The translations under genes were made by a program, and so were the position numbers. 51,254 bases of DNA from Candidatus Xenobia bacterium (lineage in GTDB: Bacteria; Vulcanimicrobiota; Xenobia; Xenobiales; QWHO01): the NCBI GenBank assembly GCA_045863235.1, contig BTUM01000057.1:1-51254 (forward strand), written 5' to 3'. Shown piece by piece: positions 1-35,913 of this stretch; within the stretch, counting starts at the first letter, position 1, and every line of letters starts with the position of its first letter. Below the pieces are notes generated by a model. It saw only the letters and a list, made by a program, of their open reading frames with translations, did not search any database and was not told the DNA's origin.

Positions 1-1002
1 ACCCAGAAGTATCCCTCCGACGGCGAGGACGGCGGTGGCGGCGGCGGCATCGGCACCACGCTGAAGTTCCCCTCCGATGGCGAGGACGGCGGTGGCGGCG
101 GCGGGATCGGCACCACGCAAAAGTACCCCTCTGACGGCGAGGACGGTGGAGGAGGGCCTGGCCCCATCAGCACGCTGAAGTATCCTTCCGATGGCGAGGA
201 CGGGGGCGGTGGACCGGGTCCCATCAGCACGCTCAAGTTCCCCTCTGACGGCGAGGACGGCGGTGGAGGCCCGATCGGTGGCGGCCCGGGCCCCATCACC
301 ACGCTCAAGTTCCCTTCCGATGGTGAGGACGGTGGAGGCGGACCTGGCCCCATCGGCACGGCCAAGTATCCCTCCGACGGCGAGGACGGCGGAGGAGGCC
401 CTGGCCCCATTACCACGCTCAAGTTCCCTTCTGACGGAGAGGACGGCGGTGGGGGACCTGGCCCCATCAGCACCTTGAAGTTCCCCTCCGATGGGGAAGA
501 TGGCGGCGGAGGCGGCCCGATCGTGAAGATCCGGGCGGACGACGACAACGGGCCCCCCATGCAGACCATGAAATACCCCAGCGACGCCGAGGATGGTGGC
601 GGCGGTGGCCCCGGGCCCATCAACACCACGCTCAAGTTCCCTTCCGATGGCGAGGACGGGGGCGGAGGGGGCCCGATCGTCAAAGTGCGAGCTGACGACG
701 ACAACGGTCCCCCCATGCAGACCATGAAGTATCCCTCCGATGGGGAGGACGGTGGCGGCGGAGGCGGCCCGATCGTGAAGGTGCGGGCGGATGATGACAC
801 CGGTCCCCCCATGCAGACCATGAAGTATCCCTCGGACGGCGAGGACGGAGGAGGGGGCGGCCCGATCATCAAAGTGCGGGCCGATGACGACAACGGTCCG
901 CCCATGCAGACCTTGAAGTATCCATCCGACGGGGAGGACGGGGGAGGTGGCGGCCCCATCGCTGTCACCAAGAAGTTCCCGTCCGACGCTGAAGACGGAG
1001 GA
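1..1002 (+). repeat. Coding tandem repeat: mostly 57-bp units (19 aa), then 93-96-bp units (31-32 aa)
   Basis: Core Thr codons start at 1, 58, 115, 172, 229, 301, 358, 415, 472, 565, 628, 721, 817, 910 and 967. Confidence 0.95.
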
Positions 1003-1017
1003 GTCCGCACCGCCTAG
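1..1017 (+). CDS. Multi-core microviridin-type (graspetide) precursor peptide, 5'-truncated by the window edge
   Basis: Frame +1 is open from base 1 to TAG at 1015-1017; the ORF track shows only 475-1017. Manual translation gives 15 copies of TxK[YF]PSD[GA]ED, matching the microviridin core TxKYPSDxE[ED]. It lies directly upstream of two ATP-grasp ligases. Confidence 0.93.
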   Translation, partial: TQKYPSDGEDGGGGGGIGTTLKFPSDGEDGGGGGGIGTTQKYPSDGEDGGGGPGPISTLKYPSDGEDGGGGPGPISTLKFPSDGEDGGGGPIGGGPGPITTLKFPSDGEDGGGGPGPIGTAKYPSDGEDGGGGPGPITTLKFPSDGEDGGGGPGPISTLKFPSDGEDGGGGGPIVKIRADDDNGPPMQTMKYPSDAEDGGGGGPGPINTTLKFPSDGEDGGGGGPIVKVRADDDNGPPMQTMKYPSDGEDGGGGGGPIVKVRADDDTGPPMQTMKYPSDGEDGGGGGPIIKVRADDDNGPPMQTLKYPSDGEDGGGGGPIAVTKKFPSDAEDGGVRTA

Positions 1018-1964
1018 TGATCCTGTTGTTGACCCACGCGGGCGACTTCTACACCATCGATGGCGTAGAAGCCGCCCTGCAGCGTTTTGGAGCGCAATAT
1101 TTCCGCCTGGACACCGATCGGTTCCCGATGGAGTATACGCTCACGTCCCGAGCCGGCGAGGGCAGCTTTCTCGAGGCCGCTGGCCAGACGCTGGCTCTGA
1201 GCCAGACGACCGCGGTCTGGAACCGGAGGCTGTACCCCGGGCACGTCCCGCCCGAGCTGCCCTTCGAACAGGCCCGCTTCAGCGCCGAGACCTGCCGCAC
1301 GGCCTTCCTCAACGCCTTTGACCGGCTGGATCAGGCCTACTGGATCAACCCTCTGCGAGCCCAGGATGCGGCCGAGTCCAAGCTGTTGCAGCTCGATCTG
1401 GCCCGCGAGGTGGGCCTGCGCGTGCCGCCCACGCTGATCACCAATCGGCCTCAGGAGGTGCGCGACTTTGCCCAGCACCACCCCCGCCTGGTGACCAAGC
1501 TCCTGGTGCAGCAGGTGCAATCCATGCAGGCTCATCCCGCCTTTGGCTACACGACCAGGGTCCAGCCCGAACATCTGGATCAGCTCGAGCAACTGCGCCT
1601 GATGCCCCAGATCTTTCAGCCCGAGCTGACCAAGAAGGTCGAGTACCGGGCCGTGGCGGTGGGCGGGAAGCTGTTCGTGGGAGGTCTGCGCGGCCTGGGC
1701 GACCTGATCGACTGGCGCCAGGCCCCGGTCGATTCGGGCCTGGCCTGGGAGAAGGCCACGTTCGATGGGGCCCTGCACGGCAAGATCCTGATGCTCCTGC
1801 AACGACTTGGTTTGCGCTTCGGCGCCCTGGACTTCATCGACGACGGCTCGGGCGAGCCCTGGTTCCTTGAGTGCAACCCTGCTGGAGAATGGGGCTGGCT
1901 GGAGCGCGACCTGGGCATGCCCATCGCCGAGACCATCGCCCGGGCGCTGGTGGAACGCTCGTGA
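1017..1964 (+). CDS. mvdC: ATP-grasp RiPP ligase, MdnB/MvdC-like (probable omega-amide forming)
   Basis: N-terminus ILLLTHAGDFYTID, RLDTDRFP, VWNRR, ESKLLQL, PPTLITN and FLECNPAGEWGWLERDLG follow the MdnB/MvdC pattern. The GTG start overlaps the precursor stop (TAGTG). Confidence 0.88.
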   Translation: MILLLTHAGDFYTIDGVEAALQRFGAQYFRLDTDRFPMEYTLTSRAGEGSFLEAAGQTLALSQTTAVWNRRLYPGHVPPELPFEQARFSAETCRTAFLNAFDRLDQAYWINPLRAQDAAESKLLQLDLAREVGLRVPPTLITNRPQEVRDFAQHHPRLVTKLLVQQVQSMQAHPAFGYTTRVQPEHLDQLEQLRLMPQIFQPELTKKVEYRAVAVGGKLFVGGLRGLGDLIDWRQAPVDSGLAWEKATFDGALHGKILMLLQRLGLRFGALDFIDDGSGEPWFLECNPAGEWGWLERDLGMPIAETIARALVERS

Positions 1965-2959
1965 GCGTCCTGCTCATCACCCGCAGCGACGACAACGACA
2001 GCGTCAAGATGGTGGCCCGGGCGCTGACGGACCTGGGTCTGGAGCCCATCCGCCTGGACACCGATCTTTATCCCATTTCGGTGCGTCTGACCACCAGCTT
2101 CGACGGCCCGGTGAGGCGGATGCTGGAGACGAAGGCAGGGCGCTTCGACCTTTCGCAGGTGAGCGCCCTGTGGTATCGGCGCTACTTCGCCGGCGGCCGC
2201 CTGCCGCTCGAGCTCGGCGACACCCGCGAGGCCTGCGTGGGCGAGGCTCGGCGCACCATGTACGGCTGCATCGCCTCCATGGGGTGCTTTCAGCTCGACC
2301 CCCTGATCTGCGTGCGGAAGACCGACCACAAGGAGCTGCAGCTGCAAAAGGCTCGCGAGTTCGGCCTGGAGATCCCGCCCACCTTGATCACCAACGATCC
2401 CGAGGAGGTCAAGGCCTTCTTTCATGCTCACGACGGCAACATCGTGACCAAGACCCAGTCGAGCTTTGCCATCTATCGCGGAGGCGAGGAGCAGGTGGTC
2501 TTCACCACTCCGGTCCGCAAGGAGAGCCTGGAGCAACTCGACGGTTTGCGCTATGCCCCTATGATGTTTCAGGCCCTGATCCCCAAGAAGGTGGAGCTGC
2601 GCTCCACCGTGACCGGCAAGCGCGTGCACACCGCTTACGTGGACTCGCAAAAGAGCGAGCTCAGCTCGGTGGACTGGCGGCGCGACGGGGTCGGCCTGAT
2701 CGATTCCTGGCACCCCTATGAGCTGCCCGATCAGGTGCGCGAGGGGTTGTTGCGCGTCACCGAGCACTTCGGGCTGAACTACGCGGCGGCCGACTTCATC
2801 GTCACCCCGGATGATCGCTACGTGTTCCTGGAGATCAATGCCGGGGGAGAGTGGTTCTGGCTGCAGCGCATCCTGCCCATCGCCGAGAGCCTGGCCGAGG
2901 TACTGGCCGGCAAGGCGCAGCGCATCCAACCTCTGGACCGCACCTTGGAGCTGGCTTGA
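1961..2959 (+). CDS. mvdD: ATP-grasp RiPP ligase, MdnC/MvdD-like (probable omega-ester forming)
   Basis: From GTG at 1961 (GTGA overlap): VLLITRSDDNDS, ALWYRR, HKELQLQ, TKTQSSFAIY...EEQVVFTTPV, DWRRDG and FLEINAGGEWFWL are colinear with MdnC/MvdD as recalled. Confidence 0.9.
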   Translation: MSVLLITRSDDNDSVKMVARALTDLGLEPIRLDTDLYPISVRLTTSFDGPVRRMLETKAGRFDLSQVSALWYRRYFAGGRLPLELGDTREACVGEARRTMYGCIASMGCFQLDPLICVRKTDHKELQLQKAREFGLEIPPTLITNDPEEVKAFFHAHDGNIVTKTQSSFAIYRGGEEQVVFTTPVRKESLEQLDGLRYAPMMFQALIPKKVELRSTVTGKRVHTAYVDSQKSELSSVDWRRDGVGLIDSWHPYELPDQVREGLLRVTEHFGLNYAAADFIVTPDDRYVFLEINAGGEWFWLQRILPIAESLAEVLAGKAQRIQPLDRTLELA

Positions 2960-3369
2960 GGCTGCTGCTGGCCCTGTGCGCTCTCTTGTTGCTGGCGGCC
3001 GCCCCAACCGACGAGGTGGCCAGGAGCACGGCCTTGCGCTGGCTGGCACGGGTGGATGCAGGCGACAACGGCCAGGTCTATTCCGGCCTGACCACGGCCA
3101 CCCGCGAGGGGATCAGCCGGGCCAGGTTGATCAACACCATCAAGGATGGCCGGGGACGGCTGGGCGAGTGCAAGAGTCACAAAGTGGTGGAGTGCAAGCG
3201 CGCCGAGGCTCACATCTTGATCGAGGTGATGAGCCGCTTTGAGGATGGTGTCCAGGCCACTGAGTTCGTCTGGCTGAGCGAGGACACCGATCAGCAATGG
3301 CGCGTCTCGGGCTACGAGCTGTATCACAACGGCAGCTCGCTGGTCAGGGTCGGAGTTACGCCCCGGTAG
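2956..3369 (+). CDS. Small secreted protein, DUF4019-like
   Basis: The TTG start overlaps the mvdD stop (TTGA), with GGAG upstream. Signal peptide MRLLLALCALLLLAAA; motifs WLARVDAG and EDTDQQWRVSGY. Confidence 0.6.
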   Translation: MRLLLALCALLLLAAAPTDEVARSTALRWLARVDAGDNGQVYSGLTTATREGISRARLINTIKDGRGRLGECKSHKVVECKRAEAHILIEVMSRFEDGVQATEFVWLSEDTDQQWRVSGYELYHNGSSLVRVGVTPR

Positions 3370-3411
3370 TCGAACCAGGCCGTCAGGGTAAGCTGGGGGA
3401 AACGCGGGTTC

Positions 3412-3495
3412 CTAAGCCATGAGGCCGGGTAACTCTAAGACCTCGGCGATCCAGCGGCCGTCAGTCTCTTGCTCGATTTCGATGGTGAATTCCAT
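3412..3495 (-). pseudogene. Truncated HicB-family antitoxin fragment
   Basis: Minus-strand translation MEFTIEIEQETDGRWIAEVLELPGLMA* resembles the HicB/UPF0150 N-terminus. It stops at TAG where YG is expected. Confidence 0.7.
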
Positions 3496-3730
3496 GCCCC
3501 CATCTTAACACTCGCCTCCGGACAGGAGGAACAGAGCAAGGGCCTGAGATTGGCCTCAAGCCGCCAACGCCAAGCGTACTCCTACCCGCCCCCCCCGTGA
3601 TTCGCCCGGACCAAAGTCGGCCAACCTCGAGTGGCCAGAGCTCGGGGGCTCTAGAATGGCGCCCTGACTCAGTTTGTGGTGTGCGGTTCTCATCTTCGCG
3701 GCGGCGTCGCGCCAGGCGTCTTTGCGCGGC

Positions 3731-4012
3731 CTAGACCATCTTTCTCAGTTCGTCAGCGGCCTGAGAGACTTCTGTCCATCGCTCGGCCAGACCTAGCTCG
3801 CCAGACGTGGCATGAGCAAATCCAGCCTCCCGTAGGGAGCGAACGATTCGGTCTGGGTCTTGACTGAGCACAAGGAGGTCCAAGTCCCTGGTGCCGCGCA
3901 CACGACCCCGCAATGGAAGGGCGGCCCCCCCGATCAGTGCCCAGGTAGTTTGAACCTGAGCGAACACCCGGACCAGCAACCTCAGAAGGTCAAGGGTCTT
4001 TTCTGCGAGCAA
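3731..4012 (-). pseudogene. Nucleotidyltransferase (AbiEii/MNT-like), probably internally deleted
   Basis: WALIGGAALPLRGRVRGTRDLDLLV is a Pol-beta-type NTase motif (GG...DxD), but the ORF is only 93 aa. Confidence 0.6.
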
Positions 4013-4127
4013 GTTCCAATGTCTTCCAGCGCTGCAGTTTCTCTGTCAGCCGGAGTGCGTCTTCTCGCTGCCAGCGAGCCCCAAGCTGACGCTCTGCTTG
4101 TTCACGTGTTGCGGCGCCGGCTTGCAT
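3990..4127 (-). CDS. Small hypothetical protein (45 aa), possible partner of the nucleotidyltransferase
   Basis: ATG at 4127 with GGAG upstream; the ORF overlaps the start of the NTase ORF. Confidence 0.35.
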   Translation of the reverse strand: MQAGAATREQAERQLGARWQREDALRLTEKLQRWKTLELARRKDP

Positions 4128-4146
4128 TTCTCCAGCCACTCCTAGA

Positions 4147-4229
4147 CTAGAAGTCCGGCCGCAAACCCCCATGTGGTGTCGGAGGGAACCTCCGCCACCA
4201 CAAGATGTTGTAGGCGGCCGGACTTCTAG
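4147..4229. repeat. Long hairpin with a perfect 16-bp outer inverted repeat
   Basis: CTAGAAGTCCGGCCGC (4147-4162) pairs with GCGGCCGGACTTCTAG (4214-4229). Inner stems are TGTGGTG/CACCACA and CGGAGG/CCTCCG. Confidence 0.85.
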
Positions 4230-4245
4230 CACAATATGTTGGGCG
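4197..4245. promoter_or_regulatory. Tandem NrdR-box-like sites
   Basis: CACAAGATGTTG at 4199 and CACAATATGTTG at 4230 are 31 bp apart and resemble the NrdR consensus acaCwAtATaTwGtg. Confidence 0.5.
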
Positions 4246-4800
4246 TCGCGCAGCCGGAAAACTGTGTCAAGGGGGTTTCCGGCTGCGCTCCTAGACTAGA
4301 GCCCATCCCAGATCGAGAGCTTCCGAAGACGCTCTTCTGGCGTGAGACTCATGACCCACGAATCGAAGGTTCCACGCAAGTAGGTTCGCTTTGTAGAGTC
4401 AGGGCGCCTTCACCAGGTGCGGAGCAAGCGCGCTGCTTCCTCTGCACTTCGCTCTCCTGTGGAGAACCAGCTTGAGCCTGGCGATCAAGCCGAGTTGGTA
4501 GGGGCCAGGGGCGTAAGACGCAAGTCAAGCCTCCTGGGGAGGGGTCCGTTGGTCCCCGGGTCGCGCACTATCGCACGTTTTTCCGTTCTTGCCCAGAGAA
4601 CCTGATATGGGCTTCTGTCACCCAGAGTCTGAAGGGCCAAGAGCCAGGTGCCTGGCCGCAGGGATTACAAGTTGACACCAATCGGTGTCGATAATTTGTT
4701 GATTGTGTTTAGGAGGAATGGGTGATGTCACAAATATTTAATAGCAAGGACATTTTTTGGAAACATGTCTTGGTTAGAATTAAGTCGGAGGGACGAACAC

Positions 4801-5994
4801 ATGACCATCGACTTCAACCCCGCTCTCAACAACATCTCAGGACCCGCCCGGGTCTCTCGGCCAGAGCTCGTGCCGCTCTCGGAAGCGCACGAGATGGGCC
4901 TGGTAACCGCGCCTTCGCCGGAGCAGATCAGGCAGCTTCAGGCCTACTATGGCGACGTGCTCGGGTCGTGTGATTGCATCCGGGGGCTTGGCTCGCAGTG
5001 CTATCGCTTCGAGGATGCCGGCGCCGGTCAGGCCATCGAGAACCTCCAGCACCAGAACCCGCAGGGCCCACTGACCGCCGAGCAACTCGTGCGCCTGATT
5101 CAGAGCGCCACCGAAGACCTGGATAACAGCGCGGCCGGCGCCGAGTTCAACGATCTGCAGAAGTTCGTCCAGAGCAACTGGAACCGGATGGACGACAAGG
5201 CCAAGCAAGTCTGGCAGGTTTACTACGAGAAGGTCATGGAGTCTCGCTCCCAGGGCAAGAGCGGCATCGACAATCAGCAGTATGAAGAGATGCTGAAGGA
5301 CATGAAGGAGATCGCTGGCTGCCAGGACGACAAGCAGTTCAAGGACGCCAGCGCCGGCGAGGCCATCAAGGCCCTCGAGCAGGAGAACCCCGAGGGCGTG
5401 ATCTCGGGCGATCAGATGCGGCGTTTGATCTACGATGCCACCAGCGACGCCGACAGCCAGGCCGCCGGTAAGGAATTCGACGACCTCTCCAAGTTCGTCA
5501 AGAAGAACTACGGACGGCTCTCGGCCGAGGCCAAGGAGATGTGGGACATCTACGCTCGCACCGTGGAGGAGCTGCGCGGCCAGGGTCAGACCGGCATTCC
5601 CTCCGACCGCTATGAGCAGATGTTCGAGGAGATGGAGGAAATTCAGGAATCGAACGAGGAGGCCAGCGAGAACTACGAGGACCCCGGGGCCGGTGACGCC
5701 ATCGAGAGCCTGCAGCGGCGCAACCCGGAGGGACAGATCTCGGGCGTTCAGATGCGCCGGCTCGTGCTTGACGCCACCAAGGACAAGGACGGTCAGGCTG
5801 CCGGAGCCGAGTACGAGGATTTGAAGCGCTTCGTGGACGCCAACCGCGACCGCCTGTCCGACGAGGCGCTGGCCATCTGGCAGGTGTACAGCCGCACGGT
5901 CGAGCGCGCGCGCTCTCAGGGCCAGGACTTCATCGACGATGAGTCCTACCAGGAGATGGTGGGCGAGATGAAGGACGTGCTCGAAGGGGATTGA
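4801..5994 (+). CDS. Hypothetical protein with three tandem ~110-aa helical domains
   Basis: RBS GGAGG precedes ATG 4801. Repeats begin FEDAGAG (5008), FKDASAG (5338) and YEDPGAG (5674). Confidence 0.85.
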   Translation: MTIDFNPALNNISGPARVSRPELVPLSEAHEMGLVTAPSPEQIRQLQAYYGDVLGSCDCIRGLGSQCYRFEDAGAGQAIENLQHQNPQGPLTAEQLVRLIQSATEDLDNSAAGAEFNDLQKFVQSNWNRMDDKAKQVWQVYYEKVMESRSQGKSGIDNQQYEEMLKDMKEIAGCQDDKQFKDASAGEAIKALEQENPEGVISGDQMRRLIYDATSDADSQAAGKEFDDLSKFVKKNYGRLSAEAKEMWDIYARTVEELRGQGQTGIPSDRYEQMFEEMEEIQESNEEASENYEDPGAGDAIESLQRRNPEGQISGVQMRRLVLDATKDKDGQAAGAEYEDLKRFVDANRDRLSDEALAIWQVYSRTVERARSQGQDFIDDESYQEMVGEMKDVLEGD

Positions 5995-6050: not shown

Positions 6051-6437
6051 GTGGGGGATCGAGCCAACATCTACGTCGTCCAGCACCCGGTCGGCCCGCC
6101 CAAGGGCGGAGTCTACCTCTACACCCACTGGGGCGGCGAAGACCTTCCCAGGGTCGTTCAGGCCGCTTTGAAGCGGGGCCGCGACCGCTGGGACGACGAG
6201 TGCTACCTGGCCCGCATCCTCTTGAGCCAGATGACCCGCGGAGATGCCATGGGCACCACCGGTGTGGGCATCACCACCTATCTGACCGACAACGAGTATC
6301 CCATTCTGGTGATCGATACCGACAGCGCGACCGTGGGGTTCGCCAGGCCGGGCAAAGAGCCCAAGTGCTTCGTCAGCTATTCCTTCGAAGACTTCCTGGC
6401 GCTCAAGAAGTTCCCTGACTGGGAACCGGTCGACTGA
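6051..6437 (+). CDS. Hypothetical protein
   Basis: 128-aa ORF with normal GC3 bias; MGDRANIY...VYLYTHWGG...RWDDECYLARI. Confidence 0.75.
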   Translation: MGDRANIYVVQHPVGPPKGGVYLYTHWGGEDLPRVVQAALKRGRDRWDDECYLARILLSQMTRGDAMGTTGVGITTYLTDNEYPILVIDTDSATVGFARPGKEPKCFVSYSFEDFLALKKFPDWEPVD

Positions 6438-6526: not shown

Positions 6527-9500
6527 ATGCGGCTTCGCGCCTTGTTGTTACTCATGCTGATCCTGTGGGGGGCCATGCAGGCCTTCTCGGAAGAGGAGGA
6601 TGAGGCCGTGTCCACCCCCGCTGCCCCTCAGGGCCTTCGCTTTCAACTGAGCGAAGGCGCGCCCGCCGACGGCGGCGCCGACCGCGTGCCCCCGGCCCAG
6701 GCGCGACCCCTCTCGACCTCGGAAGCCGAAGCCGTGCTCAAGCGCATGCCGCCTTTCAAAGTGGCTGGCCAGACCACCGAGTTCGCCCTGCGCGAAAAGT
6801 CCCAGCCGGCTCCTCGCACCGGCAAGACCGTGGAGATGCCCTTCCCGCCCCCACAGGCTCCGGATCGGCCGGCGGTGGCCCCCAAGACGCTGGAGGTGCT
6901 GCGCAAGATCCCCGAAGGCGCGGTGCCGCTCGCTCCCCAGCTCTCGGTGACCTTCAACCAGCCCATGGTGGCGGTGACCTCGCATGCCGAGTTGGCCTCC
7001 CAGACCCCCGTCAAGCTGACCCCGCAGCCTCCGGGCAACTGGCGCTGGGTGGGCACCCAGACCATCCTGTTCGACCCCCGCGGCGGCAGCAGCGTCAAGG
7101 CGCGCTTCCCCATGTCCACCGACTACCGCATCGAGGTGCCGGCGGGCACGAAGTCGGCTTCAGGACAGGCTCTCAGCTCGGCTGTGAGCTGGTCGTTTCA
7201 GACTCCCACCGTCCAGATCGAGTCCAGCTCCCCGAGCAGCGGCCATCCGCAGCCCCTGGACCCGCTGATGCACGTGACCCTCAACCAGGACATCGACCCG
7301 GCCGCCGTGCTGGCCTCCATCAAGCTTTCCGCCGATGGCCAGCCAAGCTTGCCGCTGCGGGCGGCCACCACGGCCGAGATCGAGAAGGCCGGGCTGAAGG
7401 ACCTGCCCGCCAACCGCCGGGTGATCTTCAAGGCGGTCAGTCCCCTGGTGCCGGCCACCAATTATGCCGTCACGATGGGGCCTGGCACCCCTTCCTTGGA
7501 GGGCCCGCTCAAGACCACCTCCGCTCAGACCTTCGGCTTTCGCACCTACGACATGTTCAAAGTGGTGGAGGCGCGCTGCGGCTGGAATGACAACTGCCCG
7601 CCCCTGACCCCCTTCGTGATCGAGTTCAATAACCCGATCGACGTCAAGAAGTTCAAGCCCTCGATGGTCAGTGTCAGCCCCGAGCTGCCGCGCATGAAGA
7701 TCGACGCCTCGGGCGGCACCCTGGTCATCCGGGGCGAGTCCAAGGGCCGCACCACTTACAGCGTGCGCCTCTCCAGCGAGCTTCCGGACAGCTTCGGCCA
7801 GCGGCTGGAAAAGGAAGAGCTGCTCACCTTCAAGGTGGGCTCGGCCAACCCCACCCTGATCAACATCGGCGGGCAACTCGCCGTGCTCGACCCCTATGGT
7901 CCGCCCAGCTACTCGGTGTACTGCATCAACCACCAGAGCCTCAAAGTCAAGATTCACGCCGTTACGCCCGAGGATTGGAGCGAGTTTTCCAAGCGGCTGG
8001 CCAGCGAGACCCATAAGACCCCGTTCGTATCGCCCGGCCAGCGCGTCTTCGACGGCAACGTGCCCACCGGGGCCAGGCCCGACGAGCTGACCGAGGTGCG
8101 CATCGACCTCAAGAGCGCCCTCAAGGAAGGCCGCGGCATGGCCGTGGTGGTGGTCGAGCCGGCCGTGCAGCCCAAGGAGGACTACCGCCGCCAGCGCATC
8201 GTGACCTGGGTTCAGGTCACCGAGCTGGGCCTGGACGCTGCCAACGACGCCACTATCCTGCAGGGGTGGGTCAATTCGCTCAAGGACGGCCAGCCCGTAA
8301 GCGGAGCCAGCCTGACCCTGCTGGACGTGGACGGAAAGCCCGTCGCCAAAGGGGAGACCGGTGCCGATGGCCTGGCCAGGCTGCAACTGGGCGCCAACGC
8401 TCCGCTGCTGGTGGCCCGTAAGGGCGCCGACACGGTCATGCTGCCCCAGCAGGCCAACTACTGGGGCTACGCCAACGGCTGGCGCGCCTCGCCGCAGTCG
8501 GACTCGATCAGCTGGTTCGTGGTGGACGACCGCAAGATGTACCGTCCCGCCGAGACCGTGCACCTCAAGGGCTGGCTGCGCCGCTACGGGGCCGGTCCTA
8601 CCGGCGACGTGAGCCCCCTCAAGGGCGAGGTCACCAAGCTCAGCTACACCGTGGACGACTCGCGGGGCAACGAGATCCTCAAGGGCGAGACGCCGGTCAC
8701 AACCGACGGAGGCTTCGACCTCAAGCTGGATCTGCCCAAAACCCCGAACCTGGGGCACGCCCGGGTGGAGCTATCGGCCTCGCCTGCTTCCGGCTTGAGC
8801 GGCTCGACCTACAGCCACGGTTTCCAGATCCAGGAGTTTCGACGGCCCGAGTTCGAGGTGAGCGCCAGCGCCGACCCCTCGAGCTCGATCGTGGGCAGCT
8901 CGGCGGTGGCCACCGTGGCTGCCAGGTACTACGCCGGCGGAGGCCTGGCCGGGGCGCCGGTGAGCTGGTCGGTGAGCAGCTCGCCCGGCTCCTACACACC
9001 GCCCGGACGCAGCGAGTACAGCTTCGGCACCTGGACCCCCTGGTGGGGCTGGGGCTGGGAAGGGCGCTATTATTCGCGCCCGGGCCACTCCACCTACAAG
9101 AGCTTCCAGGCGGTGACCGATTCGGCCGGGGTGCACCATCTGAAGATGGACTTTCAGGCCATGGAGCCGCCCGCGCCTACGGTGGTGCGGGCCGAAGCCT
9201 CGGTGACGGACGTCAACCGGCAGGCCTGGAACGCCTCCACCTCGGTGCTGGTGCACCCGTCCGACCTGTACCTGGGGCTCAAGACGCCCCGCTCCTTCGT
9301 GGAGAAGGGCCAGCCCATCGAGCTGGAGGTGCTGGCCTGCGACCGTGAGGGCAAGGCTGTGGCCGGGCGCCCCATCGAGGTGCTGGCCTACCGCCAGGAC
9401 TACGAGGTGGTGGAGGGGGAGTACCGCCCCACCCGTACCGATGTGCAGAAGCAGTCGGTCGTCTCCTCATCTGGCGCCCCCAGCAAACTGAGCTTTCAGA

Positions 9501-12496
9501 CGCCGGCTGGAGGCACTTACAAGCTCGAGGTGCGTGGCACCGACGAGCAGGGCCGCGCCAACCTGAGCGAGCTGACGGTCTGGGTGGCCGGCGGCAAGCG
9601 TCCCCCCGAGCGCAAGGTGGAGCAAGAGCAAGTCACCCTGATCCCCAACCAGAAAGAGTTCCGGGCCGGCGATGTGGCCGAGATCCTGGTCCAGGCTCCC
9701 TTCTACCCGGCCGAGGGCGTGATGACCCTGCGCCGCTCTGGGCTGCTCTCCACGAAGACCTTCCGGATGGAAGGACCATCGACGATTCTGAAGGTGCCCA
9801 TCGAGGAGGGCTACGTGCCCAACCTGTACGTGCAGGTGGACCTGGTGGGGGCAGCCGAGCGGCCTCCCTCCAAGCGCCCGGCCTACGCGGTGGGCTCGCT
9901 CAACCTGCCGGTGCCGCCTTACGCGCGCACCTTGAAGGTGGCCGTGCAGCCCGCCCACCCGGCCACCGAGCCGGGGGCCCAGACCTCGCTCGAGGTCAGG
10001 ATCACCGATCCGGCCGGCCAGGGCGTGGCCGGGGCTGAAGTGGCCCTGTTCGTGGTGGACGAGGCGGTGCTGTCTCTGACCGGCTACCAGTTCCCCGACC
10101 CGCTGAACGTGTTCTACGGCCAGCGGGGCGCCGGGGTGAGCGACTTCCATCTGCGCCAGTATGTGCTGCTGGCCGAGCTCGATCAACTGCAGCAGGCGGT
10201 CGAGGAGAAGCAGCGGGACGGCAGAATGAACGGCGGAGTGGTGCCCATGCCCGCCGCTGCTCCTGCAGCCCGGCGGGCCAAGTCGGAGGCGCTCACGTCG
10301 GCCGAGATGGCCGATGACGAAGGTCGAGCCGGCAAGGACAAGGATGCCAGCAGCCCCATCGCCGTGCGCACCGATTTCAACCCTCTGGCCCTGTTCGCGC
10401 CGGTGGTGCGCACCGACGCCTCGGGCAAGGCCAGCGTGCCCTTCAAGTTGCCCGACAACCTGACCCGTTACCGCATCGTGGCCCTGGCCGCGCGCGGGCG
10501 CGATTTCGGAAAGGGCGAGGCGGGCCTGGTGGCGCGCCTGCCCCTGATGGTGCGCCCCTCGCCGCCGCGCTTTGCCAACTTCGGCGACCGCTTCGAGCTG
10601 CCGGTGGTGCTGCAGAACCAGACCGACCGTCCCCTCGAGGTGCAGGTGGCGGCTCGCTCGAGTAACGCCAGCCTCACGGCGGCCACAGGCTACGCCCTCA
10701 AGGTGCCGGCCAACAACCGCCTCGAGGTGCGCTTCCCCACGGCCACCGAGCAGGCCGGACGGGCCGCCTTCCAGGTGGGCGCGGTATCGGGCATCTACGC
10801 CGATGCGGCCGAGTTCAACCTGCCCGTGTGGACCCCCGCCACCAGCGAGGCCTTCGCCACCTACGGCGTCATCGACGAGGGCTCCATCGCCCAGCCGGTC
10901 AAGACGCCCGGCGCGGTTTTCCCCCAGTTCGGCGGACTGGACGTGACCACCACCTCCACCGCCGTCCAGGAGCTGACCGACGCCGTGCTCTACCTGGTGC
11001 GCTATCCCTTCGACTGCTCCGAGCAGGTGTCGTCGCGCTTGCTGGCCATCGCCGCCCTCAAGGACGTGCTCACGGCCTTCAAGACGGCCCAGATGCCCGA
11101 TCCCGCAGCCTTGAAGGCGGGGGTGGACCAGGACATCGAGCGCCTGCGCCTCTTGCAGGCCTATAACGGCGGCTTCGGGTTCTGGAACACCTCCGCGGAG
11201 ACCTGGCCCTACCTAAGCGTGCACGTGGCTCACTCGCTGGTGCGCGCCCGCGAGAAGGGCTTCAAAGTGCCCGACGACATGCTCAACCGCAGCTCGAGCT
11301 ACCTCAAGCAGATCGAGAGCCACATCCCCGGCTGGTACGGCCCCGACGCGCGTCGGGCCATCATCGCCTATGCTCTCTACGTGCGCCATCGCATGAAGGA
11401 CTCCGACTACGCCAAGGCGCGCTGGTTGATCGCCGACGCGGGCGGGGTGGACAAGCTGCCCATGGAGGCGGTGGGCTGGATCCTCTACGTGATGAGCAAA
11501 GACCCTGGCTCGGCCCAGCAGGTGCAGGCCATCCGGGCCTTCCTCAACAACCGCGTGACCGAGACCGCCAGCACGGCTCACTTCGTGACCTCCTACAACG
11601 AGGACAGCGGCTGGCTGGTGCTGGCCTCCGACCGTCGCGTGGACGGCATCATGCTGGAAGCGTTGATCGAGGATCAGCCCAAGAACGACATCATTCCCAA
11701 GCTGGTGCGGGGGCTCTTGAGCCACCGCAAGGCGGGTCACTGGCTCAATACCCAGGAGAACTGCTTCGTGCTGCTGGCCCTGGACCGCTACTTCAACACC
11801 TACGAGAAGATCACGCCCGACTTCGTGGCCCGCGTCTGGCTCGGCGACAAGTTCGCCGGCGAGGCCAAGTTCGCCGGGCGGCAGATCGAGCGCCAGAACA
11901 TCCGCGTGCCCATGAGCTACCTCGAGGGTAAGGGCACCCAGAACCTGATCCTGAGCAAGACCGGGGCGGGACGGCTGTACTACCGACTGGGGATGGAGTA
12001 TGCCCCGCGCAACCTCAAGCTCGATCCGGCCGATCACGGCTTTGCAGTGGAGCGGATCTACGAGGGCGTGGATTCGGAGAAGGACGTCTCTCGCGACGCC
12101 GAGGGAGTGTGGCACGTGAAGGCGGGCTCGCGGGTGAGGGTGCGCCTGACCATGGCCGCCCCCTCGCGGCGCTACCACGTGGCTCTGGTGGATCCGATGC
12201 CGGCCGGGCTGGAGGCCCTCAACCCGGCCCTGGCGGTGACCGGCAGCGTGCCGGCCGACCCCAAGGCCCGAGGCGCCTACTGGTGGTGGATGAGCACCTG
12301 GTACGAGCACCAGAACATGCGAGACGAGCGGGTGGAGGCCTTCGCCTCGCTGCTCTGGGCCGGGGTCTACGAGTACAGCTACGTGGCTCGCGCCACGACG
12401 CCTGGCAACTTCGTGGTTCCGCCGGCCCGGGCCGAGGAGATGTACGCCCCCGAGACGTTCGGGCGCTCGGCCAGCGACCGGGTGATCGTGGAATAG
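6527..12496 (+). CDS. Bacterial alpha-2-macroglobulin family protein
   Basis: 1989 aa with a signal peptide, Ig-like N-terminal domains, DRKMYRPAETVHLKG, VVDEAVL, LPDNLTRYR, thioester motif YPFDCSEQ (~11015), W-NTQEN and C-terminal PARAEEMYAPETFGRS. Confidence 0.95.
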   Translation: MRLRALLLLMLILWGAMQAFSEEEDEAVSTPAAPQGLRFQLSEGAPADGGADRVPPAQARPLSTSEAEAVLKRMPPFKVAGQTTEFALREKSQPAPRTGKTVEMPFPPPQAPDRPAVAPKTLEVLRKIPEGAVPLAPQLSVTFNQPMVAVTSHAELASQTPVKLTPQPPGNWRWVGTQTILFDPRGGSSVKARFPMSTDYRIEVPAGTKSASGQALSSAVSWSFQTPTVQIESSSPSSGHPQPLDPLMHVTLNQDIDPAAVLASIKLSADGQPSLPLRAATTAEIEKAGLKDLPANRRVIFKAVSPLVPATNYAVTMGPGTPSLEGPLKTTSAQTFGFRTYDMFKVVEARCGWNDNCPPLTPFVIEFNNPIDVKKFKPSMVSVSPELPRMKIDASGGTLVIRGESKGRTTYSVRLSSELPDSFGQRLEKEELLTFKVGSANPTLINIGGQLAVLDPYGPPSYSVYCINHQSLKVKIHAVTPEDWSEFSKRLASETHKTPFVSPGQRVFDGNVPTGARPDELTEVRIDLKSALKEGRGMAVVVVEPAVQPKEDYRRQRIVTWVQVTELGLDAANDATILQGWVNSLKDGQPVSGASLTLLDVDGKPVAKGETGADGLARLQLGANAPLLVARKGADTVMLPQQANYWGYANGWRASPQSDSISWFVVDDRKMYRPAETVHLKGWLRRYGAGPTGDVSPLKGEVTKLSYTVDDSRGNEILKGETPVTTDGGFDLKLDLPKTPNLGHARVELSASPASGLSGSTYSHGFQIQEFRRPEFEVSASADPSSSIVGSSAVATVAARYYAGGGLAGAPVSWSVSSSPGSYTPPGRSEYSFGTWTPWWGWGWEGRYYSRPGHSTYKSFQAVTDSAGVHHLKMDFQAMEPPAPTVVRAEASVTDVNRQAWNASTSVLVHPSDLYLGLKTPRSFVEKGQPIELEVLACDREGKAVAGRPIEVLAYRQDYEVVEGEYRPTRTDVQKQSVVSSSGAPSKLSFQTPAGGTYKLEVRGTDEQGRANLSELTVWVAGGKRPPERKVEQEQVTLIPNQKEFRAGDVAEILVQAPFYPAEGVMTLRRSGLLSTKTFRMEGPSTILKVPIEEGYVPNLYVQVDLVGAAERPPSKRPAYAVGSLNLPVPPYARTLKVAVQPAHPATEPGAQTSLEVRITDPAGQGVAGAEVALFVVDEAVLSLTGYQFPDPLNVFYGQRGAGVSDFHLRQYVLLAELDQLQQAVEEKQRDGRMNGGVVPMPAAAPAARRAKSEALTSAEMADDEGRAGKDKDASSPIAVRTDFNPLALFAPVVRTDASGKASVPFKLPDNLTRYRIVALAARGRDFGKGEAGLVARLPLMVRPSPPRFANFGDRFELPVVLQNQTDRPLEVQVAARSSNASLTAATGYALKVPANNRLEVRFPTATEQAGRAAFQVGAVSGIYADAAEFNLPVWTPATSEAFATYGVIDEGSIAQPVKTPGAVFPQFGGLDVTTTSTAVQELTDAVLYLVRYPFDCSEQVSSRLLAIAALKDVLTAFKTAQMPDPAALKAGVDQDIERLRLLQAYNGGFGFWNTSAETWPYLSVHVAHSLVRAREKGFKVPDDMLNRSSSYLKQIESHIPGWYGPDARRAIIAYALYVRHRMKDSDYAKARWLIADAGGVDKLPMEAVGWILYVMSKDPGSAQQVQAIRAFLNNRVTETASTAHFVTSYNEDSGWLVLASDRRVDGIMLEALIEDQPKNDIIPKLVRGLLSHRKAGHWLNTQENCFVLLALDRYFNTYEKITPDFVARVWLGDKFAGEAKFAGRQIERQNIRVPMSYLEGKGTQNLILSKTGAGRLYYRLGMEYAPRNLKLDPADHGFAVERIYEGVDSEKDVSRDAEGVWHVKAGSRVRVRLTMAAPSRRYHVALVDPMPAGLEALNPALAVTGSVPADPKARGAYWWWMSTWYEHQNMRDERVEAFASLLWAGVYEYSYVARATTPGNFVVPPARAEEMYAPETFGRSASDRVIVE

Positions 12497-23952: not shown

Positions 23953-24028
<76 letters not shown>

Positions 24029-24044
24029 GAGTACATAGGATGAC

Positions 24045-24120
24045 GCTGGGGTAGCTCAGCAGGCAGAGCACGTCCTTGGTAAGGACGAGGTCGGCGGTTC
24101 GAGCCCGCTCCCCAGCTCCA
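24045..24120 (+). tRNA. tRNA-Thr(GGT)
   Basis: 76 nt; anticodon arm CGTCC-TTGGTAA-GGACG, CCA end. Confidence 0.97.
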
Positions 24121-26843: not shown

Positions 26844-26919
<76 letters not shown>

Positions 26920-35829: not shown

Positions 35830-35913
35830 GCGGGAGTGGCGAAATGGCAGACGCACGGGACTTAAAATCCCGGGCCGCAAGGCGTGCGGGTTCGAGTCCC
35901 GCCTCCCGCACCA
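35830..35913 (+). tRNA. tRNA-Leu(TAA)
   Basis: 84 nt with a long variable arm; anticodon arm CGGGA-CTTAAAA-TCCCG; CCA end. Confidence 0.96.

Follow-up and report, generated by a model that had tools for sequence, protein, structure and literature searches.

A probable microviridin-class graspetide cluster with a precursor of at least 17 cores in uncultured Eremiobacterota

Microviridins are among the best-studied protease-inhibiting peptides that are synthesized ribosomally and modified post-translationally (RiPPs), and their ligases are in use as cage-peptide tools. Their cores are closed by two esters, Thr1-Asp7 and Ser6-Glu9, and by one amide, Lys3-Asp10. We analysed a window that spans bases 1 to 51,254 of contig C57 from a Candidatus Xenobia genome assembly (GCA_045863235.1; 8.36 Mb, 166 contigs, 97.6% complete, 2.6% contaminated). 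The left end of this window carries the 3' part of a precursor gene with tandem microviridin cores, directly followed by two ATP-grasp ligase genes. We regard the locus as very probably a genuine microviridin-class (group 1) graspetide cluster, with the cross-linking chemistry of that class, from uncultured Eremiobacterota (Vulcanimicrobiota) of sludge and bioreactor habitats. The core array is real and belongs to one gene, and 17 is a well-supported minimum for its number of cores. The cluster is notable for its scale, for the parts for release and export that are missing, for a change of copy number within the genus and for a possible second cross-link motif.

The class II system AMdnA/AMdnB/AMdnC of Anabaena sp. 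PCC 7120 (PMC5934393) resembles our locus in having one PFFARFL-type leader, tandem TxKxPSDx(D/E)(D/E) cores and, directly downstream, a B-type and then a C-type ligase in the same order. Our locus departs from class II by its 17 cores, its Eremiobacterota host, the Gly or Ala at core position 8, four linkers with a KxxxD motif and the lack of a double-glycine stretch after the leader motif; moreover, no membrane protein with a C39 peptidase domain was found. In class II, the double-glycine motif and the C39-domain membrane protein are usual, but not obligatory (PMC7823629). Class I (MdnA-E of Microcystis, MvdA-E of Planktothrix) shares with our locus the core motif, the A-B-C gene order and the two ligase types. 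It is unlike it in having a single core that gives a 13- to 14-residue product, and its GNAT acetyltransferase and ABC transporter were not found in the stretches that we scanned. The core motif agrees with TxKxPSDx(D/E)(D/E) as printed in PMC12848669.

Plesiocin and thuringinin (groups 2 and 3) are like our locus, as it may be read, in combining tandem cross-linked repeats into one uncut multi-headed protease inhibitor (PMC13097080, PMC12291112), and the potency of plesiocin grows with the number of cyclised motifs (same sources). They differ by their hairpin ester topology, their single ligase, their three to four repeats and their other core motifs. Corallotide (CorA/CorB/CorC, Corallococcus exercitus, group 15; PMC13097080) is a large, 22-kDa uncut graspetide with repeated KxxxD motifs, to which a short stretch of four long linkers here is very similar; it has no microviridin cages, and it depends on a TIGR04187-family ligase and on a 2-oxoglutarate (2OG) oxygenase hydroxylating Lys, none such being seen in our cluster. 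The myxomiditides (myx, Myxococcota; PMC12848669) provide a non-cyanobacterial example of a cage with extra lactam rings on an N-terminal Lys/acid motif. Their precursors are single-core with a (KxxE)2 motif, and they require a dedicated third and fourth ligase, MyxF and MyxD2, whereas our cluster contains two ligases only.

The precursor gene and its two ligases

The initial annotation, made from the window alone, had described a microviridin-type cluster in a non-cyanobacterial host, with 15 cores in one open frame that ran past the left edge, all six cross-linking residues kept in every core, Gly or Ala in the place of the usual Trp, and coupling by stop/start overlaps to two ATP-grasp ligases; each of these points was borne out. 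Frame +1 is open from window base 1 to a TAG at 1015-1017. This 3' part of the gene (1-1017, plus strand, 338 residues) carries cores 3-17 of the complete precursor, and all 15 match the pattern T-x-K-[YF]-P-S-D-[GA]-E-D, as do 17 of the 17 cores of the joined gene described below. The cores, all on the plus strand, read TQKYPSDGED (1-30, the first in the window and the third of the joined gene, and 115-144), TLKFPSDGED (58-87, 229-258, 301-330, 415-444, 472-501 and 628-657), TLKYPSDGED (172-201 and 910-939), TAKYPSDGED (358-387), TMKYPSDAED (565-594), TMKYPSDGED (721-750 and 817-846) and, as the last one, TKKFPSDAED (967-996). The precursor matched Pfam PF12559 (Inhibitor_I10) with 189.7 bits (E 8.1e-57; cut-off 21) and NCBIfam NF033738 (microviridin/marinostatin family tricyclic proteinase inhibitor) with 225.8 bits (cut-off 26), well above both cut-offs.

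The codons of the cores indicate how these units are maintained. Over the 105 pairs formed by the 15 window cores, positions T1, K3, P5, S6, D7, E9 and D10 showed 296 synonymous and 0 non-synonymous codon differences, and all 155 non-synonymous differences were confined to positions 2, 4 and 8. One core Ser is encoded by AGC and all others by TCN. Because the differences at the motif positions are synonymous only, each core must be under selection and the units must be old enough for drift, which also argues against a collapsed or inflated repeat. Purifying selection maintains all seven motif positions, Pro5 as well as the six that take part in cross-links. Directly after every core come 2 to 8 Gly in a row; this run is kept in diverged genera of the order, the remaining linker being variable.

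The left edge of the window is base 1 of contig C57, so that the precursor frame is broken by a contig end. A motif scan of the whole assembly located the 5' part of the gene at the 3' end of contig C53 (C53:54602-55043, 442 bases, comprising the start codon, an 89-residue leader and cores 1-3). Window positions 1-55 repeat the final 55 bases of C53 exactly, this 55-mer is present at only two sites in the assembly (the end of C53 and the start of C57), and no other contig of the assembly shares 31-mers with the core array. Joining C53 and C57 gave an in-frame gene of 1,404 bases with a single terminal stop. The encoded precursor has 467 residues (45.4 kDa, pI 4.17; 27% Gly, 11% Pro, 11% Asp) and 17 cores separated by Gly/Pro-rich linkers of 9 to 22 residues. 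Both the PFFARFL-like leader and the total core count, which the initial annotation had proposed to seek upstream, were thus obtained from C53.

The same gene was found unbroken in a metagenome-assembled genome (MAG) of the same genus, in a record titled Candidatus Eremiobacteraeota bacterium KLAP168 (locus L009, 163-kb contig), where it encodes 473 residues with 17 cores (82% identity). On its 5' side, L009 carries the same genes as C53 (Sir2, an FAD oxidoreductase, a lactate/malate dehydrogenase and two small unknown genes) and on its 3' side the same genes as the window (both ligases, a DUF4019 protein and a 409-residue repeat protein). In addition, four metagenome studies (on sludge, bioreactors and digesters) supplied Logan contigs with at least 99% identity to the array, and these cover most of it. 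The unbroken L009 gene with common flanks on both sides and the Logan contigs of four studies establish that the array is real. The initial annotation had named an assembly artefact, shown by long reads, among the findings that would undo its reading; the array also stands in other MAG assemblies and in the Logan contigs.

The number 17 has to be read as a minimum, because the assembly broke within the array, because a 19-core relative (L008) has extra units exactly at the place of this break, and because two Logan contigs contain joints that 'go back' inside the array (from 395 to 1 and from 473 to 121). Both the L008 units and these joints, which hint that the repeats may also be arranged differently, tell against 17 as a final count. 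Logan contigs are assembled from 31-letter words and are unreliable within repeats.

The 89-residue leader encoded on C53 contains PFFGHLLQGQ, which fell in the same alignment columns as PFFARFLEGQ of the Nostoc, Oscillatoria, Flavobacterium and Sorangium precursors when 16 other precursors were aligned. In the same alignment, the first core of the Eremiobacterota leaders follows within about 10 residues of the docking motif, and the double-glycine stretch of cyanobacterial class II leaders was not found in the Eremiobacterota leaders aligned. The N-terminus of the precursor is not hydrophobic and has no signal peptide.

The two ligase genes follow without a gap. The stop of the precursor and the start of ligase 1 overlap in TAGTG (1015-1019), ligases 1 and 2 overlap in GTGA (1961-1964) and ligase 2 overlaps with a fourth gene in TTGA (2956-2959). 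Ligase 1 (1017-1964, plus strand, 315 residues, GTG start having one base in common with the precursor stop) is MdnB/MvdC-like and predicted to make the Lys-Asp amide. It matched PF21068 (MvdD pre-ATP-grasp domain; cut-off 27) with 82.3 bits and scored 291.3 bits with TIGR04185 (MvdC), against 196.7 with MvdD and 217.7 with TIGR04187. Ligase 2 (1961-2959, plus strand, 332 residues) is MdnC/MvdD-like and predicted to make the two esters; it gave 95.3 bits with PF21068 and 380.2 with TIGR04184 (MvdD), against 249.7 with MvdC. The solved structures led to the same assignment. We take 5ig8 to be MdnB and 5ig9 to be MdnC; the best solved relatives of ligase 1 were 5ig8 (247.8 bits) and AMdnB 7m4s (231.8), with 147 for 5ig9, and those of ligase 2 were 5ig9 (282.9 bits, residues 1-319) and CdnC 7mgv (255.3), with 212 for 5ig8. 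The structures that bear the names AMdnB and CdnC thus give the same B/C split as the 5ig8/5ig9 pair. The start of ligase 2 can be placed at 1961 because its alignment to 5ig9 begins at residue 1. The initial annotation had counted a clustering with ATP-grasp proteins outside RiPP synthesis as a refutation; the two enzymes pair instead with the lactam-forming (MdnB/MvdC/AMdnB) and the lactone-forming (MdnC/MvdD/CdnC) types.

The order precursor, B-type ligase, C-type ligase was the same in every two-ligase locus that we fetched (Eremiobacterota, cyanobacteria, Flavobacterium and Sorangium). The genome contains seven ATP-grasp maturase-like genes, and its only B-type (amide) ligase is the one in the window, which fits with the Lys-free cores found at single-ligase loci.

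Several observations weigh against the assignment to the microviridin class. Trp stands at position 8 in none of the window cores (13 of the 15 have Gly and 2 have Ala), and the leader motif has His in place of the canonical Arg. Both ligases score under the NCBIfam equivalog cut-offs (291.3 against 425 for TIGR04185; 380.2 against 475 for TIGR04184); such scores are expected for a distant phylum, and they weaken strict equivalence, not family membership. AMdnC acted incompletely in vitro on a three-core substrate, five dehydrations giving the main species (PMC5934393), and with an engineered ligase the conversion of trivalent substrates was less complete than that of divalent ones (PMC12291112); modification of all 17 cores can therefore not be taken for granted. 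Finally, the case is built from sequence, the precursor has no signal peptide and the cluster has no exporter. We nevertheless hold to a microviridin-class cluster, in view of the family matches of the precursor and the presence of both ligase types.

Proposed chemistry and fate of the product

By analogy with the family, the PFFGHLL helix of the leader would dock on both ligases. Complex prediction of ligase 2 with the 89-residue leader gave a score of 0.00 and was uninformative. Ligase 2 would close the two esters of each core (Thr1-Asp7 and Ser6-Glu9) and ligase 1 would afterwards close the Lys3-Asp10 amide. In described systems, MvdD/MdnC yield the bicyclic ester form and MdnB/MvdC add the lactam (PMC7823629). 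Ligase 2 would probably work distributively, core by core, as observed with AMdnA and AMdnC; three-core AMdnA was processed distributively, in a loose N-to-C order and with no links between cores (PMC5934393). Up to 51 cross-links could be formed over 17 cores, corresponding to a loss of 918 Da. This raises the enzymological question of one leader and two distributive ligases serving 51 ring closures over 370 residues.

Each cage would be a substrate-like serine-protease inhibitor with its specificity set by the residue between Thr and Lys. This residue occupies the S1 pocket of the protease, and in engineered microviridins Leu directed inhibition to elastase, Met to subtilisin and Arg or Lys to trypsin (PMC7823629). 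In the 17 cores it is Leu (9), Gln (3), Met (3), Ala (1) or Lys (1). One chain might thus combine several specificities and, because the residue is mostly Leu, then Gln or Met, would be directed mainly at subtilisin- or elastase-type targets. With five specificity residues in one chain, the precursor could serve as it stands as a scaffold for inhibitors that are multi-specific or multivalent.

It has about an even chance of being right that the product is one multi-headed inhibitor, or a few large pieces, and not 17 peptides. We lean towards an uncut product because the leader has no double-glycine stretch, because neither a C39 exporter nor a cluster peptidase was found, and because multivalent graspetides that stay uncut have precedents in plesiocin, thuringinin and the 22-kDa corallotide. 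Lacking an exporter, a cut motif and a peptidase, the cluster is well suited to asking whether some 'RiPP precursors' are finished proteins. One of these arguments carries little weight: in class I, the protease that releases the microviridin is encoded elsewhere than in the cluster (PMC13039773), which tells against an uncut product and makes the missing cluster peptidase weak evidence for it.

The precursor could alternatively be a production line, in which an outside or unspecific protease cuts the Gly-rich linkers to release about 17 tricyclic peptides with several specificities. We hold this to be tenable, if on the doubtful side. The 2 to 8 Gly that follow every core and are kept across diverged genera of the order would suit it, since double-glycine is the usual cut site in class II and III precursors (PMC13039773, PMC7823629), and so would the position of the class I maturation protease outside its cluster (PMC13039773). 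On the other hand, the genome search gave no exporter with a fused C39 peptidase, the leader is devoid of a double-glycine recognition stretch, and flexible Gly-rich linkers may serve to give the ligases access to tandem cores, which would account for the Gly runs with no cutting at all; tandem cores of an engineered system were better modified when the linker was more flexible (PMC12291112). A last point in favour came from genome G068, where a secreted gene of the S9 prolyl-oligopeptidase family stands directly after a 13-core precursor. This gene has no counterpart in the genome of the window at E 1e-10, and we rejected it as a lead to linker cleavage. In that locus (L043, G068:C8, 8034-11698) the S9 protein has 808 residues and the two ligases are found 4.6 kb further downstream.

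The linkers between the cores suggest a further complication. Four of them, 21 to 22 residues long, contain [IV][IV]K[IV]RADDD, and the core after each of these long linkers has Met or Leu at position 2. The motifs read IVKIRADD (520-543, in a 21-residue linker), IVKVRADD (676-699 and 772-795) and IIKVRADD (865-888), all on the plus strand, and each KxxxD is a candidate Lys-Asp lactam site. In corallotide, a Lys-Asp isopeptide bond closes each of five KxxxD motifs (PMC13097080). The product could thus be a hybrid in which the four long linkers are a second type of core with a lactam from Lys to Asp (i to i+4), so that four units would be tetracyclic; we consider this possible, but unlikely. 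Compared by eye, 8 of 11 aligned positions of the linker stretch, the linked Lys and Asp among them, agree with the modified corallotide fragment printed in PMC13097080. All four occurrences of the pattern [IV][IV]K[IV].ADD in the six frames of the 8.36-Mb genome fall in the precursor gene, and four copies are kept in each of the two closest relatives, L008 and L009. Extra N-terminal lactams on microviridin cages are moreover known from the myxomiditides (PMC12848669). Against a hybrid, the likeness is that of a short motif, which was found neither in the same-genus locus L010 nor in the other fetched loci nor in 129 other fetched proteins; a CorB-type ligase and a CorC-type oxygenase were not seen in the cluster, and the stretch, with its Lys and Arg, could equally be a cut site or a spacer.

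Taking the uncut product and the lactam linkers together leads to a more speculative picture, which we put forward tentatively: a 45-kDa 'RiPP protein', i.e. an uncut, acidic, Gly-linked string of at least 17 cages with five P1 residues, four corallotide-like lactam modules and 55 cross-links made by two ligases. The cell might store this protein as a broad-spectrum, multivalent trap against digestive serine proteases from grazers or predatory bacteria, and the array would grow and shrink by unit duplication.

Two other explanations for the array appear very improbable. An inflated or chimeric array, due to short-repeat misassembly or to C53 and C57 not being adjacent, would agree with the break inside the array and with the two Logan contigs that go back, but is opposed by the unbroken 15-, 17- and 19-core genes of three independent MAG assemblies, by the genes that both sides of the break have in common with L009, by the many synonymous changes that distinguish the units from collapsed copies of one unit, by the matches of at least 99% in contigs from four studies and by the in-frame join. 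That the repeats are unmodified, forming an ordinary Gly/Pro-rich acidic repeat protein next to ligases with another substrate, would agree with a biased composition (27% Gly), but leaves aside the strict conservation of the cross-linking residues despite synonymous drift, the docking-type leader, the translational coupling of the precursor gene to both ligase types and the recurrence of the precursor-ligase pairing across phyla.

Relatives and what is described in print

A scan of species-representative genomes returned 18 loci. The locus L008 (CAYYHB010000143.1) has a precursor that is 90% identical to ours, with 19 cores and one degenerate unit. Its record is titled 'uncultured Burkholderiales bacterium', yet the genome (G104) is placed in the genus of the window, and the label looks wrong. 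Locus L010, of the same genus and titled Vulcanimicrobiota bacterium, has 15 cores. The number of cores thus varies within the genus (15, 17 and 19), and the non-cyanobacterial host is confirmed by the titles of the same-genus records (Candidatus Eremiobacteraeota and Vulcanimicrobiota). In the fifteen loci from cyanobacteria, Flavobacterium and myxobacteria, each gene has 2 to 4 cores.

A scan of 201 genomes of the phylum with PF12559 was too insensitive (it gave one match in the genome of the window and missed the 15-core array of the window) and was replaced by a search with the precursor protein. This search matched 15 of the 201 genomes, including that of the window, all in one order. By family, matches were found in 4 of 4 genomes (f1), 8 of 16 (f3) and 2 of 19 (f2), and in 0 of 161 from other families. 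The core counts in the phylum were 19, 17, 15, 13 and 10, followed by smaller numbers. Together with the further loci of the window genome described below, this speaks for a heavy investment of Eremiobacterota in graspetides.

The 119 proteins fetched with the precursor as query comprised 7 with 15 strict cores, 1 with 14, 3 with 13 and 1 with 10, while the remaining 107 had at most 8, and 15 of them none. Many of the long precursors belong to a different lineage with helical leaders of 150 to 340 residues, and some lie within proteins of 800 to 950 residues; one of these is from a Myxococcota MAG as named by its source. Similarly large arrays (13 to 16 cores) are therefore present in a second precursor family with another leader. 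Six proteins (P0051-P0055 and P0059) have 670 to 950 residues, with 8 to 16 cores and PFFARFL between long helical N- and C-terminal regions, and several of their cores have Ala or Ser at position 4; from their sequences, they look like proteins with inhibitor modules and not like peptide precursors.

The initial annotation had stated that characterised precursors have one or a few cores, in agreement with the literature: the characterised multi-core case has three cores (PMC5934393), and class II precursors are given up to five, with reference to Ahmed et al. 2017 (PMC13039773, PMC7823629). Our precursor has more than three times the copies that these papers give ('up to five'). No description of more than five microviridin cores was found in the full-text literature searched, which did not cover the surveys Ahmed 2017, Lee 2020 and Ramesh 2021. 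Likewise, no paper linking Eremiobacterota to graspetides was found, 'Eremiobacter' and 'microviridin' co-occurring in 0 of the papers searched. The description of the cluster as exceptionally long and undescribed therefore stands in so far as the precursor goes beyond the printed maximum; it does not extend to public data, which already contain near-identical precursors (90% and 82% identity, with 19 and 17 cores) and unrelated ones with 13 to 16 cores. Relatives with 13 to 19 cores are in public data, unannotated, and what is lacking is their description in print. The published classification does not cover this public layer of 13- to 19-core precursors.

Neighbouring genes and other graspetide loci

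The fourth gene (2956-3369, plus strand, TTG start) encodes a 137-residue DUF4019 protein (PF13211, 46.8 bits). The initial annotation had called it a coupled secreted protein; the coupling of this small protein was confirmed, while its secretion rests on an N-terminal hydrophobic stretch recognised by eye. An AF2 model from the single sequence was unusable (pLDDT 40.9), and one from a 6-row alignment (pLDDT 89.5) showed an NTF2-like fold, with 4r1k as the best Foldseek match (TM 0.66) and a concordant result in the protein atlas. A DUF4019 protein stands next to the cluster in L009 (91% identity) and L010 (48%), and in no other fetched locus. It is a genus-level accessory that lies outside the conserved system.

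Just upstream of the precursor are two small genes (127 residues; 85 residues with two hydrophobic stretches), which neighbour the cluster only within the genus. Neither protein had a match in Pfam, and the smaller one is a member of a broad family of small, unnamed proteins. The initial annotation had pointed to MdnE, MdnD or peptidase genes as possible neighbours; no peptidase, ABC exporter or transporter, or acetyltransferase family was matched among the 7 Pfam-scanned open reading frames (ORFs) of the 6 kb upstream, and no peptidase, ABC transporter or acetyltransferase family among the 16 Pfam-scanned ORFs of window positions 1-23843, several of which are without a family. A search of the genome with PF03412 gave no exporter fused to a C39 peptidase and just two C39-like ORFs that stand alone (223 residues and 259 residues; contigs C5 and C31). 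Neither around the cluster nor upstream of the precursor did promoter and terminator scans return more sites than in shuffled sequence. Rfam matched only four tRNA genes in the window, none of them near the cluster (23953-24025, 24045-24117, 26844-26916 and 35830-35910).

The 1.4 kb after the cluster (3370-4764) contain no ORF with a coding signature and no Rfam match, and the G+C content falls there from 0.65 to 0.57-0.62. They are followed, on the plus strand, by genes for a 409-residue acidic protein with three internal repeats of about 115 residues (4765-5994) and for a 128-residue protein (6051-6437), both with no family above cut-off; L009 keeps them after its cluster (91% and 70% identity, respectively). 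Positions 6527-12496 (plus strand) encode a secreted bacterial alpha-2-macroglobulin of 1,989 residues with bMG10, A2M bait-region, A2M, MG2 and bMG3 domains, the translation of which shows a thioester-type CSEQ motif. A protease trap is thus found 3 kb downstream of a cluster for a protease inhibitor, possibly by coincidence.

The genome of the window (G000) contains at least five further precursor candidates. A second multi-core precursor (G000:C114:8866-9885; L053:2867-3886) has a PFFAQLL leader and 9 cores, some of them with Ala for the lactam Lys. No ligase lies beside it, and it is oriented convergently to an ABC-2-type transporter pair, a layout also found in another genome of the genus (L051); the ligases of the window probably serve it in trans. 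A third one (G000:C84:28313-31160; L054) combines a PFFAHFL leader with 7 cores in which Arg or Ala replaces Lys, so that only esters are expected. Its single MvdD-type ligase, 56% identical to ligase 2, is located about 0.8 kb downstream with one ORF in between.

About 10 kb upstream of the main precursor, on C53 (G000:C53:43283-44943; L002), a 235-residue precursor with a PFFGRFL leader overlaps an MvdD-type ligase; its three AKHETDRDE repeats are not of the microviridin motif. On the minus strand of C156 (G000:C156:1-1000), the contig end cuts off a precursor that has a PFFTSFL leader and TMAYPSDSD cores, and GIEAPEP repeats like those of C156 recur at the end of another contig (G000:C148:8240-9527, minus strand), upstream of a divergent ATP-grasp ligase (145 bits with MvdC). 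The two are probably one cluster split by the assembly. Contig C45 (G000:C45; L056:3335-6623, minus strand) encodes a 478-residue protein made almost entirely of short Glu-Lys repeats, followed by two ATP-grasp genes that scored best with TIGR04187; this may be a very large lactam-type graspetide. Outside the genome of the window, locus L049 (G076:C184, 8097-11089) has a five-core Lys-free precursor, followed by an MvdD-type ligase and then by a radical SAM enzyme, and may represent a hybrid tailoring cluster.

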